Virus record (IMG/VR): IMGVR_UViG_2695420523_000008
Strand: one strand, 5' to 3'
DNA: 4,707 nt
From: a virus
Taxonomy: Duplodnaviria; Heunggongvirae; Uroviricota; Caudoviricetes
The notes under the pieces were generated by a model. It did not search any database. It worked only from the letters and a program-made list of their open reading frames with translations, and was not told where the DNA came from. Within the stretch, counting starts at the first letter, position 1. Each line of letters begins with the position of its first letter. Below, in pieces: positions 1 to 4,707 of this stretch. The position numbers and the translations under genes were made by a program.

Positions 1-60
1 CATGGTGCTGTCCTGTAAAGCAATGCGCCTGCGTTCCTCAAACTATGGCGCTGATATTGG

Positions 61-366
61 CTATTCATGCTCTTTGACCTTGCGTCGCTGGAGTTCTTCA
101 CGCGCGACGGTGACGAGTTGCCCGATCTCCTCGGCTGCTTTGATGCCGATTTGTTCGACCTTAGCCAGGGCATCCAGTGACGACACAAGGGGATTTTCTC
201 CGCTGCCTTCTGCTTGGCGGCGGGCTATTTCTCCGCGCATGGCGGTTACGATAAATCCGGCATTGCTTTCACCGTCCAGCTTAACGGATTCCATCCCTTG
301 CATAACATCTAGTGGGACTCTGACAGTTGTCAGTTGTGATTTTGCGTTTTTGTTAGCCGTTGCCAT
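61..366 (-). CDS. Putative ribbon-helix-helix (Arc/Mnt/CopG-like) transcriptional repressor, 101 aa
   Basis: ORF 61..366 on minus strand. AGGAG Shine-Dalgarno (complement of 375-379) lies 8 nt upstream of the ATG (complement of 364-366). The segment TTVRVPLDVMQGMESVKLDGESNAGFIVTAMRGEIARR fits the RHH pattern of beta-strand, helix, G-x-S-x-N turn, helix. It is transcribed divergently from the rightward operon and sits next to the palindromic operator-like sites. Family assignment is by motif pattern only. Confidence 0.6.
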   Translation of the reverse strand: MATANKNAKSQLTTVRVPLDVMQGMESVKLDGESNAGFIVTAMRGEIARRQAEGSGENPLVSSLDALAKVEQIGIKAAEEIGQLVTVAREELQRRKVKEHE

Positions 367-387
367 TTCTGAAACTCCTAATCATCG

Positions 388-465
388 GTGTGTTTCAGTA
401 TACACAAAAAAAGAAATACAAAAAGCCTTGACGTGTGTTTCATGCGCTCATAACATGAAACACAC
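388..465. promoter_or_regulatory. Operator-like sites: three copies of GTGTGTTTCA, including a perfect 12-bp inverted repeat
   Basis: GTGTGTTTCATG at 433-444 and its exact reverse complement CATGAAACACAC at 454-465, separated by a 9-bp spacer; a third copy of the half-site GTGTGTTTCA at 388-397, followed by the palindrome GTATAC at 398-403. The sites overlap the -35/-10 of the rightward promoter and the candidate -10 of the leftward promoter. Confidence 0.55.
428..456 (+). promoter_or_regulatory. Sigma70-like promoter for the rightward operon
   Basis: TTGACG at 428-433 (5/6 match to TTGACA), a 17-bp spacer, then TAACAT at 451-456 (4/6 match to TATAAT, with the conserved T1, A2 and T6 present). 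About 100 nt upstream of the first rightward start codon. Predicted from consensus only. Confidence 0.45.
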
Positions 466-493
466 CGAAAGGATTGTTGAAATACAAAGAGCA

Positions 494-527
494 ACGCCCC
501 GCAGTGCTGGGAACACATACGGGGCGT
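494..527 (+). other. Stem-loop in the leader of the rightward operon (8-bp GC-rich stem, 18-nt loop)
   Basis: ACGCCCCG at 494-501 pairs with CGGGGCGT at 520-527. No U-tract follows, so it is not a canonical intrinsic terminator. It lies between the predicted promoter and the first SD/ATG at 546-559. Confidence 0.3.
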
Positions 528-556
528 CTAACCAACAACGTAAACTAGGAGCCGTT

Positions 557-754
557 ATGGTTGCTGTAAATCATATACCACACCTTGTACACACACAAAC
601 GGCCTTTGTGTGGCGTTTTCTGGCACTGAGTGCCGGAGAATCTCAAATCATCCACGTAACCGCCTGGACGGAACGCGAAGCGCGTAGCCGTTGCCCGTCC
701 GGTTGTGTTGCTGTATTCGCTGCAAAAATCCGCCAGGGAGTGAGTCATGCTTAA
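557..754 (+). CDS. Hypothetical small protein, 65 aa (first gene of rightward operon)
   Basis: TAGGAG at 546-551, 5-nt spacer, ATG at 557. This is the in-frame 3' part of the long open frame 2..754, whose 5' part overlaps the better-supported minus-strand gene. Stop TAA at 752-754 overlaps the next start by 8 nt. A resemblance to Icd-like small proteins of P4-type elements is only a vague recollection and is unverified. Confidence 0.4.
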   Translation: MVAVNHIPHLVHTQTAFVWRFLALSAGESQIIHVTAWTEREARSRCPSGCVAVFAAKIRQGVSHA

Positions 755-932
755 AACCTTCCGTGTATTTGCCCGAGCTGTTAACCCAATAGGCCACACA
801 ATTGGTATCGCTCAGAATGTGAAGGCTGTTAATGTTCAGACGGCTATTGCTGCGGTGAGAAGCGAATCATCAGAATATGGCTTATCACAAGTCATTATTT
901 CAGCAGTGTATGAATTAAAAGAGGTGCATTAA
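747..932 (+). CDS. Hypothetical small protein, 61 aa
   Basis: ORF track 747..932. GGGAG at 736-740 precedes ATG 747 by 6 nt. Its stop TAA at 930-932 overlaps the next ATG at 932 (TAATG), indicating translational coupling. Confidence 0.5.
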   Translation: MLKTFRVFARAVNPIGHTIGIAQNVKAVNVQTAIAAVRSESSEYGLSQVIISAVYELKEVH

Positions 933-3413: not shown

Positions 3414-3426
3414 TTTTTTGTAAAAG

Positions 3427-3650
3427 CCATCTACCCCATCTACCTGAACGAAATAAACGCATATTATTCAACATGATAAGTGGGTATAGGGCTAGGTAGA
3501 AGGCTAATAAAAGCTCTCTACCTCTTCTACCTGATTTTATCAGTTTCAGGTAGCAGGGTAGACGGCAGGTAGAGGAGTCAAAAAAGCTATCTACCCGCTG
3601 AAAGCCGCGCCATTACTGACATGATGAGCATTCGGGTAGATGGGTAGAGG
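3427..3650. repeat. Iteron array; candidate origin of replication for the element
   Basis: GGTAG on the top strand at 3495, 3549, 3557, 3568, 3635 and 3643, and CTACC at 3431, 3440, 3518, 3527 and 3591: 11 copies in about 220 bp, where about 0.4 would be expected by chance for one 5-mer on either strand. A perfect tandem 9-mer CCATCTACC x2 at 3427-3444 is mirrored by the inverted pair GGGTAGATGGGTAGAGG at 3634-3650. AT-rich stretches at 3446-3490 and 3504-3513 lie between repeat clusters. Located directly 3' of the helicase gene. Confidence 0.6.
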
Positions 3651-3698
3651 GGGGGAGGCACAACTAAAAACTTTTTAAACGAGGGGGGGTGAAAATAA

Positions 3699-4592: not shown

Positions 4593-4707
4593 GGTAATGA
4601 CTCCAACTTATTGATAGTGTTTTATGTTCAGATAATGCCCGATGACTTTGTCATGCAGCTCCACCGATTTTGAGAACGACAGCGACTTCCGTCCCAGCCG
4701 TGCCAGG
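4593..4707 (-). mobile_element. IS1 insertion sequence, terminal 115 bp including the right inverted repeat; continues beyond the window
   Basis: GGTAATGACTCCAACTTATTGATAGTG from 4593 matches the IS1 terminal inverted repeat as I recall it, and the following sequence through 4707 matches the IS1 insB-proximal end. Recognised from memory of the IS1 sequence, not searched. Confidence 0.88.
4608..4707 (-). CDS. insB: IS1 transposase InsB, 3' end (partial; start lies outside the window)
   Basis: Minus-strand translation of 4706..4608 gives [32 protein letters not shown] followed by a stop (TAA, complement of 4608-4610), 15 nt inside the IS1 end. Absent from the ORF track because no start codon lies within the window. 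Confidence 0.8.

Follow-up and report, generated by a model that had tools for sequence, protein, structure and literature searches.

A small ribbon–helix–helix protein is a probable autoregulated repressor at a divergent promoter of a Gram-negative phage-inducible chromosomal island

The immI region of phage P22 encodes Mnt and Arc, small ribbon–helix–helix (RHH) repressors that regulate their own synthesis and whose operators overlap the core elements of two opposed promoters. Mnt joins an N-terminal RHH domain to a C-terminal helical oligomerization domain and is divergent from the operon that it represses. The Stl repressors of Staphylococcus aureus pathogenicity islands (SaPIs) use helix-turn-helix (HTH) DNA-binding domains. 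In those islands the repressor gene, for Stl or Rpr, is divergent from the satellite replication module (PMC6092414). For the phage-inducible chromosomal islands (PICIs) of Gram-negative bacteria, the defining paper describes unidirectional islands, names no regulator other than AlpA and gives their global repressor as unknown (PMC6092414); the regulator profiles of SatelliteFinder are those of AlpA, MerR and Stl only (PMC10085698). In P4, as summarized in PMC10111431, termination is suppressed when eta is translated from a late promoter further upstream, and transcription can then proceed into the replication genes. Here we describe a candidate regulator of a Gram-negative PICI, a 101-residue protein encoded on the minus strand (positions 61–366) of a 4,707-nt stretch of viral DNA (Caudoviricetes; IMG/VR record IMGVR_UViG_2695420523_000008), which we refer to as the window.

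The window is the regulatory and replication part of an element that, by its gene content, is a PICI of the 'helper-embedded' type. In L001, the locus that contains it, the genes run integrase, AlpA, Bro-N, the RHH gene (on the opposite strand), an Icd-like gene, three small open reading frames (ORFs), DUF4222 and a P4-type primase, and then a further small ORF, a single-stranded DNA-binding protein (SSB), major capsid, head decoration and HTH proteins and terS; the element splits the portal gene of a lambdoid prophage, one half of which lies on either side of it. It thus has the int, alpA, primase, capsid and terS genes of a Gram-negative PICI, with iterons downstream of the primase, and Pfam and NCBIfam calls for the other window ORFs agree with the regulatory and replication part of such an island. 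The same organization has been described for helper-embedded PICIs (PMC10111431).

Set beside immI, the locus shares with Mnt a predicted RHH domain followed by a long helix, and with the P22 system divergent leftward and rightward promoters (PL and PR) that have sites on their hexamers. It differs in that no sequence relationship to Arc or Mnt is detectable, in that four or five sites lie 22–23 bp apart where P22 has two half-sites one helical turn apart, and in that the gene, nested antisense in a long ORF, adjoins a satellite replication operon rather than an operon with an antirepressor. As in P4 immunity, where the PLE promoter, the CI RNA and seqA/seqC lie inside eta/kil, the cassette comes after an alpA/vis homologue and before the primase operon, inside an ORF with an Icd-like/Kil C-terminal part, and in both cases an internal promoter drives the replication genes; however, P4 immunity is a matter of a C4-family RNA, whereas here there is a protein gene on the opposite strand with candidate DNA operators. 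The SaPI layout recurs in the divergence of repressor gene and replication module, but the fold here is RHH rather than HTH, int is not co-transcribed (int and alpA run rightward, upstream of the RHH gene), the candidate sites lie in one intergenic region only, and AlpA-dependent induction occurs in the same elements. No sequence similarity links the 101-residue protein to the RHH proteins omega, AmrZ or CopG, and the heptads bound by omega of plasmid pSM19035 are contiguous, whereas the sites here are two helical turns apart.

The intergenic region between the RHH gene and the Icd-like gene is 190 bp long and is marked by exact copies of GTGTGTTTCA, of which there are three (388–397 and 433–442 on the plus strand, 456–465 on the minus strand) against an expectation of 0.01; none of 200 shuffles reached three. 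Weaker copies are present as well, and the spacing of sites is about 22–23 bp, that is, two helical turns. The first-pass annotation had proposed a repeat-structured operator beside the gene, and the three exact copies, beyond chance and overlapping PR, uphold that proposal as a candidate. The first site, O1 (388–397), lies over the predicted leftward transcript start, at a position that is the same in all relatives. The second, O2 (412–421, minus strand), is degenerate, with 7 of 10 matches, was found by a phased-site search and lies in the −35 region of PL. O3 (433–442) abuts the −35 hexamer of PR and O4 (456–465) its −10 hexamer, and O3 and O4 together make up a 26-nt imperfect palindrome. 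A possible weak fifth site, TTGTATTTCA with two mismatches, lies in the transcribed leader (478–487, minus strand). PR itself (TTGACG-17 nt-TAACAT, 428–456, plus strand) is the sole sigma-70-like match within window positions 1–800. The conserved sequence TATACT on the minus strand (397–402), which has O1 and O2 on its two sides, is a putative −10 element of the RHH gene's own promoter, PL.

This arrangement recurs in the 19 related loci examined, which were found through the protein, with CFT073 added. Almost all have a TTGAC-type −35 hexamer in PR, the exceptions being TTGCAA, TTGAAA and TTAACG in three, and the putative −10 of PL is TATxxT-like in most loci and TATAAT in L002. Measured from the RHH start codon, the four sites lie at about 25, 49, 70 and 94 nt in every related locus examined, and in 9 of the 11 loci tested none of 200 shuffles gave a phased-site score as high. 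No further operator-like site was found anywhere else in the element. The earlier designation of the protein as master repressor of the element does not hold up in this respect: the sites are confined to the one divergent promoter region, so int, alpA and bro would not be direct targets of the RHH protein.

The sequence of the sites changes together with that of the predicted recognition strand (about residues 11–17). QLTTVRV or QLFTVRV occurs with GTGTGTTTCA in the window and in Xenorhabdus, Photorhabdus and Serratia; KQISIRI with TGTGATTCA in Escherichia coli (L014); QSLTARI with GTGTAAGAC in Enterobacter and Klebsiella; and Q(L/V/I)KN(I/V)R(I/V) with GTGTG(T/C)ATT in Erwinia (L007), Serratia (L021) and L010, a record titled Martelella alba. 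Other E. coli loci combine QMKNIRF with GGTGTGTAC-like sites (L016) or QQLNARF with TGGTATTCA (L018/L019), and Phytobacter (L011) has QQINARF with TGGGATTCA, such that QQ(I/L)NARF strands pair with TGG(G/T)ATTCA. The remaining pairs are QMISTRV with GTGTAG(T/G)CA (L020), QAIAARV with GTGTAAACA (L022) and QALKARV with GTGGGCCAC (the island EcCICFT073). At least ten pairings can be told apart by eye. Among 16 related elements, compared in a same-class versus different-class table in place of a graded Mantel test, a similar strand goes with a similar site, or both are dissimilar, in 116 of 120 locus pairs (9 + 107; Fisher p = 2e-10, the pairs not being independent). Few positions of the N-terminal domain vary more than those of the strand, and all four sites change in concert within a locus, which calls for a protein with changed specificity. 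Where the window's strand is shared (the Xenorhabdus/Photorhabdus group), the share of invariant positions is 70% within the sites and 41% outside them, and the O3–O4 spacer is almost free to vary.

Natural exchanges bear on which gene product reads the sites. In the E. coli loci L016 and L018, the Icd-like genes are close to that of the window by inspection and the C-terminal halves of the RHH protein are 88–90% identical to its own, yet strands and sites differ. Conversely, in Xenorhabdus and Photorhabdus the Icd-like genes have strongly diverged and the C-terminal halves are 57–63% identical, whereas strand and sites are identical to those of the window. These swaps argue that the RHH domain, and not the neighbouring gene, reads the sites; by these comparisons, neither the C-terminal half of the protein nor the next gene tracks the changes in strand and site. 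The repeats thus look like the operator of the RHH protein. The two halves of the protein also have discordant histories more broadly: E. coli variants are 88–94% identical in the C-terminal half and 54–69% in the N-terminal half, and the reverse applies in Xenorhabdus and Photorhabdus. Identity is 54% (N) and 90% (C) for the homologue P0085, and 83% (N) and 57% (C) for P0082. This discordance points to recombination between the C-terminal helix and a module made up of the DNA-binding domain and its operators.

The 101-residue ORF, beginning MATANKNAKSQLTTVRVP and ending in ELQRRKVKEHE, is preceded by a Shine–Dalgarno sequence AGGAG read from the sequence 8 nt 5′ of its ATG (375–379, minus strand). 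Homologues number 216 at E <= 1e-3, mostly of about 100 residues and from Enterobacterales. When 1.8 billion cluster representatives were searched exhaustively and without a profile, relatives turned up in only 32 clusters, which fall into two size classes, a long form of about 100 residues, to which the window protein belongs, and a short form of about 60. Residues 9–50 match the whole of NCBIfam model NF041551 (YlcI_YnfO_N; model positions 1–42 of 42) with 63.3 bits against a curated cut-off of 30, and RefSeq (WP_000179580.1) gives the protein the same family name; its PHROGs assignments, phrog_6522 and phrog_949, are both groups of unknown function. The gene is present in 711 of 5,426 complete E. 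coli genomes (13%), Nissle 1917 and ATCC 25922 among them, and every copy is named 'YlcI/YnfO family protein'. A search of GenBank phages with the protein (tblastn) gave no match at 1e-5, and the titles and abstracts of the literature searched, a coverage that leaves subscription-only papers outside, assign no function to a YlcI/YnfO protein. Compared over 54 pairs, the RHH frame has more conservative substitutions than the antisense frame that overlaps it (mean BLOSUM62 −0.11 versus −0.94), and its identity is higher (0.61 versus 0.54), which indicates that protein-level selection acts on the RHH frame and not on the antisense frame. Given its homologues, its NF041551 match, its spread in E. 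coli and its conservative substitutions, 61–366 is, on comparative grounds, a real gene.

The namesakes of the family, YlcI and YnfO of the cryptic lambdoid prophages of E. coli K-12, have a homologous N-terminal domain (phrog_949, residues 1–52, E = 1.7e-13) with the RxP and GxS motifs. They differ in length (about 60–65 residues), in having a basic tail and no C-terminal helix, and in their position beside phage cos and terminase genes. Such a short member, YlcI (5334–5528, minus strand; 64 residues, RNIRFPNQMIEQ...), is carried by the helper prophage in L001. Its gene is separated from cos by about 0.2 kb and precedes nohD, which encodes the small terminase, by 0.4 kb; the product may be an RHH protein with a role near cos.

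Two monomer runs of AlphaFold2, one on an alignment of 30 sequences and the other on 28 more diverse ones, gave a mean predicted local distance difference test (pLDDT) of 83.0 and 86.7, with values of 87–96 over residues 11–50 and about 94 over residues 71–90. Both models show an extended segment up to R16-x-P18, a helix (19–28), a turn and a second helix (35–54/55), followed by a short low-confidence linker and a single long helix (59–100). We therefore distinguish an N-terminal RHH domain (residues 1–51; 214–366, minus strand), with the recognition strand QLTTVRV, from a C-terminal extension (residues 52–101; 61–213, minus strand) that is missing in the short forms of EcCICFT073 and YlcI. 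The former contains an RHH unit of about 45 residues, made up of a β-strand, helix A, a tight turn and helix B, and the RHH signature: a strand xTxRxP of alternating residues, with R16 and P18 invariant, and a conserved G32-E33-S34 turn, with E33 invariant. Arc (NLRWP...NGRS) and Mnt share the R-x-P-like motif and the G-x-S-type turn. Among structure matches, the best for the N-terminal domain are RHH antitoxins and repressors, with StnY, omega, MazE6, AmrZ and ParD ranked lower; the rest are long-helix matches to the C-terminal part. Foldseek against the PDB returned only two matches, Arc and CopG, at E of about 8–9, a weakness to be expected because the query is half of an intertwined dimer, and against the BFVD viral models it gave no significant match. 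Sequence searches of the PDB found no RHH protein; some UniRef homologues bear the name 'Arc-like DNA binding domain'. The RHH assignment, which we accept because of the predicted structure and not of a curated sequence model, can be made with high confidence for the N-terminal 50 or so residues.

In these respects the first-pass annotation was accurate: the 101-residue minus-strand ORF lies exactly where it was placed, the strand-helix-turn-helix pattern of RHH type reappears in both AlphaFold2 models, and the C-terminal half of about 50 residues is there, predicted as one long helix. A weak PDB sequence match of residues 45–86 to the helix-hairpin-helix domain of Hef (E = 0.0055) led us to consider a C-terminal helix-hairpin-helix motif, for which LAKVEQIGIKAAEEI fits the pattern and G74 is conserved; it is unlikely, as both models give a continuous helix there at a pLDDT of 94 and G74 is lost in distant relatives.

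The RHH gene is itself nested in a long frame of the other strand. This frame, which we call eta-like and which shares the phase of the Icd-like gene, stays open rightward from 2 to 754 (plus strand), antisense through the RHH gene and operator region, and continues 5′ of the window; in L001 (11684–12754) it comprises 356 open codons and starts inside the end of the Bro-N gene, and in EcCICFT073 (L025, 8767–10053) it is a single ORF of 428 residues that begins right after alpA. Besides the RHH gene, it traverses the operators, the leader and the 59-residue ORF that lies downstream of the RHH gene. Upstream of the Icd-like ATG it stays open for 594–1101 nt in 12 of 16 loci, whereas the other two frames close within 3–120 nt. 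In each of the 12 open loci the RHH start codon and the Icd-like ATG are separated by a distance that equals 1 modulo 3, and the four closed loci have another phase. The eta-like and RHH codons share third positions, the least constraining antisense phase, and the translation of the rightward frame is rich in Ser, Cys and Arg, with no domain match except at its Icd-like end; what is conserved in it seems to be mainly the absence of stop codons.

P4 has a comparable frame. Its long ORF of 214 residues, which we take as Eta, overlaps ORF88, the homologue of alpA, at the end of that gene, holds the CI/C4 RNA (C4 family, 74.9 bits) and seqA, and ends in an Icd-like (Kil) domain (NF033153, residues 161–208, E = 1.4e-20). 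The Icd-like gene of the window (557–754, plus strand), the first rightward gene, matches the same model (E = 1.2e-17), and its product is, on this evidence, of the same family as the Kil part of the P4 ORF. BLASTP of the Icd-like protein against P4 Eta gave no alignment, and the relationship rests on the common NCBIfam model. With a long ORF and an Icd-like end in both, the PICI region is, as far as gene layout indicates, the counterpart of P4 eta/kil, with the RHH cassette in place of the RNA immunity cassette of P4. An RNA immunity of C4/CI type in the leader was considered and rejected: Rfam yields nothing for the window at E <= 1 or for positions 440–600 at E <= 10, neither C4 nor isrK nor c4-a1b1, and the same search detects all three in P4.

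AlpA stands close by in these elements. Its gene lies just 5′ of the window (L001 10835–11092; Phage_AlpA, E = 5e-14), and int and alpA, running rightward upstream of the RHH gene, are convergent with it. AlpA/HTH_17 is annotated in every related locus that has gene annotation, and the order int, alpA, (Bro/AntA), RHH on the opposite strand, about 190 bp, a small rightward gene (Icd-like where tested) and primase is conserved over three primase types, one locus with AAA_25 for primase and at least six genera. EcCICFT073 (NC_004431, 1,377,930–1,388,654), the prototype of the AlpA-induced islands, has, between alpA and the Icd-like gene, a short form of 59 residues (WP_000190587) and then a 57-residue ORF, both on the minus strand and with high-numbered locus tags; they look like later additions to the annotation, and the short form does not figure in the early description of the island. 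We suspect that the early CFT073 annotation listed only rightward genes here. In that island, over-expression of AlpA alone causes excision and pri-dependent replication with no helper phage (PMC6092414). The idea that the RHH protein represents a control logic different from that of AlpA therefore has to be given up: with AlpA just upstream here, AlpA/HTH_17 in every annotated relative and a short form in EcCICFT073 itself, RHH would be an extra layer in AlpA-type PICIs and not an alternative.

Taken together, the RHH fold, the sites at promoters and the co-variation of strand and site make it most likely that the protein represses the rightward operon and regulates its own synthesis. On the sequence evidence, we consider it probable that it is a sequence-specific, immunity-type regulator of a Gram-negative PICI, acting over the Icd-like/primase operon. 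In the mechanism that we propose, dimers would insert their paired N-terminal strands (residues ~11–17) into the major groove and bind, within the divergent region of 190 bp, the four or five sites of 9–10 bp, which at 22–23 bp apart lie on one face of the DNA. Occupation of O3 and O4, and perhaps of the fifth site, O5, would block PR, prevent expression from the Icd-like gene through DUF4222–primase–SSB and keep replication of the island off; occupation of O1 and O2 would limit the leftward promoter and let the protein restrict its own synthesis. The C-terminal helix, whose variation does not follow DNA specificity and which short-form islands do without, probably links dimers into larger oligomers that span the phased sites cooperatively, as in P22 Mnt. 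Induction, the least certain step, would probably not require the repressor to be bound by a helper protein: transcription that depends on AlpA, with translation of the eta-like frame, may cross the antisense RHH gene and the operators, bypass PR and, because the transcription is convergent, lower RHH expression.

Several observations weigh against this reading. PL has no good −35 hexamer, and TATACT falls below the consensus scan of window positions 1–800. The orientation of the sites varies by class (+-+- or ++--), and the spacing of 22–23 bp exceeds that of the Arc, Mnt and CopG operators. A graded Mantel test of strand against site distances is weak (r = 0.18, p about 0.035), and the strand codons lie less than 100 bp from the sites; with the strand encoded only some 100 bp away, the co-variation may in part be linkage within one recombining block. 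Sequence profiles lend the fold little: hhalign finds the expected register to Arc at a probability of only 7% (1% for Mnt), the Pfam match of the window protein to PSK_trans_fac (E = 0.022) is below threshold, and among 31 relatives no RHH model reaches cut-off, PSK_trans_fac being sub-threshold in 12 and RHH_1 matching one at E = 0.0029. A Pfam search, put forward earlier as a check on the RHH call, gives sub-threshold matches from the RHH clan and no RHH model at threshold. Against the read-through step in particular stand the loss of the eta-like frame in 4 of 16 loci and terminator-like hairpins on the plus strand after alpA (L001 11105–11123) and inside the RHH gene (window 199–224).

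These points have to be set against how other explanations fare. That the protein is an Stl-like, helper-sensing master repressor is unlikely. The divergence of its gene from the replication operon is that of stl, genes of antirepressor type (Bro-N or AntA) often adjoin it, and a C-terminal half that behaves as a separate module, far better conserved across E. coli variants than the N-terminal half, fits a surface for a common partner. Yet several long-form loci have neither a Bro nor an AntA gene, operator-like sites occur at one divergent promoter only, and the C-terminal part is predicted to be a single helix, without a globular sensor. Moreover, EcCICFT073, which lambda and phi80 mobilize, has the 59-residue form without the C-terminal domain, and the excision and replication of that island in response to AlpA alone need no helper (PMC6092414). 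A helper-sensing C-terminal domain, suggested in the first-pass annotation by analogy with Stl, thus finds no support here. We give still less credence, and in fact very little, to the protein as an RHH antitoxin whose toxin would be either the downstream 59-residue ORF or, on the other side of the promoter, the Icd-like cell-division inhibitor. In its favour are a weak hit to the Rv0623-like antitoxin family of Pfam and a small conserved ORF 57 nt downstream, but that ORF matches no toxin family (no Pfam match; phrog_21027 only) and is absent from many loci that keep RHH gene and operators, so that the pairing expected of a type II system is lacking; short and long forms alike are without the typical toxin-binding C-terminal region, the long form having a plain helix there; and transcriptional repression of the Icd-like gene is the repressor model itself.

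The phasing of the sites raises a different possibility, which we regard as quite improbable: an architectural or centromere-type RHH protein, like ParG, omega or TraM, that coats phased repeats for replication, partition or packaging. Four or five in-phase sites on one DNA face and in variable orientation are reminiscent of omega arrays, and the short relative YlcI adjoins cos and terminase genes in lambdoid prophages; but the sites fall exactly on the −35 and −10 hexamers of two divergent promoters, no ParA-type partner is encoded, and origin iterons lie elsewhere (3421–3651) with a different sequence. Least credible of all is that the rightward eta-like ORF is the real gene, the 101-residue ORF an antisense by-product and the repeats the target of another protein such as AlpA. 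The length over which the rightward frame stays open in 12 of 16 loci would suit this, as would the 2018 description of the islands as transcribed in one direction (PMC6092414). It is countered by the higher identity and far more conservative substitutions of the RHH frame, by the confident predicted RHH fold and the Shine–Dalgarno sequence of the 101-residue ORF, by short family members (YlcI) that sit elsewhere, beside cos in lambdoid prophage, and by an antisense translation that is Ser/Cys/Arg-rich with a domain match at the Icd-like end only. None of the rivals accounts as well as the repressor model for sites centred on promoters, for a functional island with the short form and for the pattern of selection.

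Read as a repressor, the 101-residue protein is in kind an ordinary small repressor and a new member of the RHH class; if it is only a local autoregulator, the finding amounts to that. A broader proposal, which we advance tentatively and think doubtful as a whole, is that it is the missing immunity repressor of Gram-negative and capsid-forming PICIs, that exchange of modules and operators would have produced at least ten immunity groups, and that antisense nesting and AlpA-driven read-through would serve as the switch, with no anti-repressor: once the helper turns on AlpA, transcription covered by ribosomes would bypass the repressed promoter and silence the repressor gene through collision. 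If true, this would be a protein-based counterpart of the RNA immunity switch of P4. Either way, the protein is a candidate for filling a stated gap in PICI biology, namely what keeps the islands silent and why AlpA expression is needed, and its antisense nesting in the eta-like frame ties PICI regulation to P4. The series of strand and operator variants is, moreover, a data set for the RHH recognition code and could supply orthogonal repressor/operator pairs.

The transcript from PR begins with a structured leader. A two-part RNA hairpin followed by a conserved tail, TCTAACCA, occupies 494–534 (plus strand) and shows compensatory changes; it is followed by a small hairpin AACG...CGTT (537–556, plus strand) whose loop contains the Shine–Dalgarno sequence of the first gene of the rightward operon (helix 2: 94% paired, with four of five pairs compensatory). 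Over 17 loci the hairpins jointly have 85.6% of cells paired, versus 27–43% in slid controls, and ten compensatory pairs, and none of 500 shuffles scored as high; the tail is near-invariant across related leaders. The structure matches no Rfam family and is not C4-like, and by eye we saw no complementarity between hairpin loop and ribosome-binding site of the C4-like kissing type. A terminator-like hairpin (CACACAAACGGCCTTTGTGTG then GCGTTTTCTG; 592–612, plus strand) lies 35 nt inside the Icd-like ORF and could be an attenuator of the rightward operon.

On the leftward side, the 59-residue ORF, which belongs to the same operon as the RHH gene, has its start codon at window positions 1–3 (minus strand; L001 11824–12003) and corresponds to WP_000130015.1 in CFT073. 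It is basic (MSDTESTKTPSPTRKRRRK...ERFAPCSFALEKFLKEH...), and its one assignment, phrog_21027, is a group of unknown function; a good leftward terminator lies beyond it (L001 11757–11737). The ORF is kept in E. coli loci and absent from Xenorhabdus, Photorhabdus, Klebsiella and others that have the RHH gene and operators.

Two further observations concern the distal part of the window. Just 3′ of the primase gene, positions 3421–3651 hold a dense array of TCTACC/GGTAGA iterons, direct and inverted and unrelated to the RHH sites, which is expected to be the replication origin of the PICI. In most genomes, similarity to the island ends at position 4593, and the last 114 bases (4594–4707), which we take to be an IS1 end, are multicopy in more than 5,000 E. 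coli genomes. The only full-length match to the window spans 8.2 kb and contains IS1A transposases; an IS1 insertion between the SSB and capsid genes thus appears to be present in this copy of the island.

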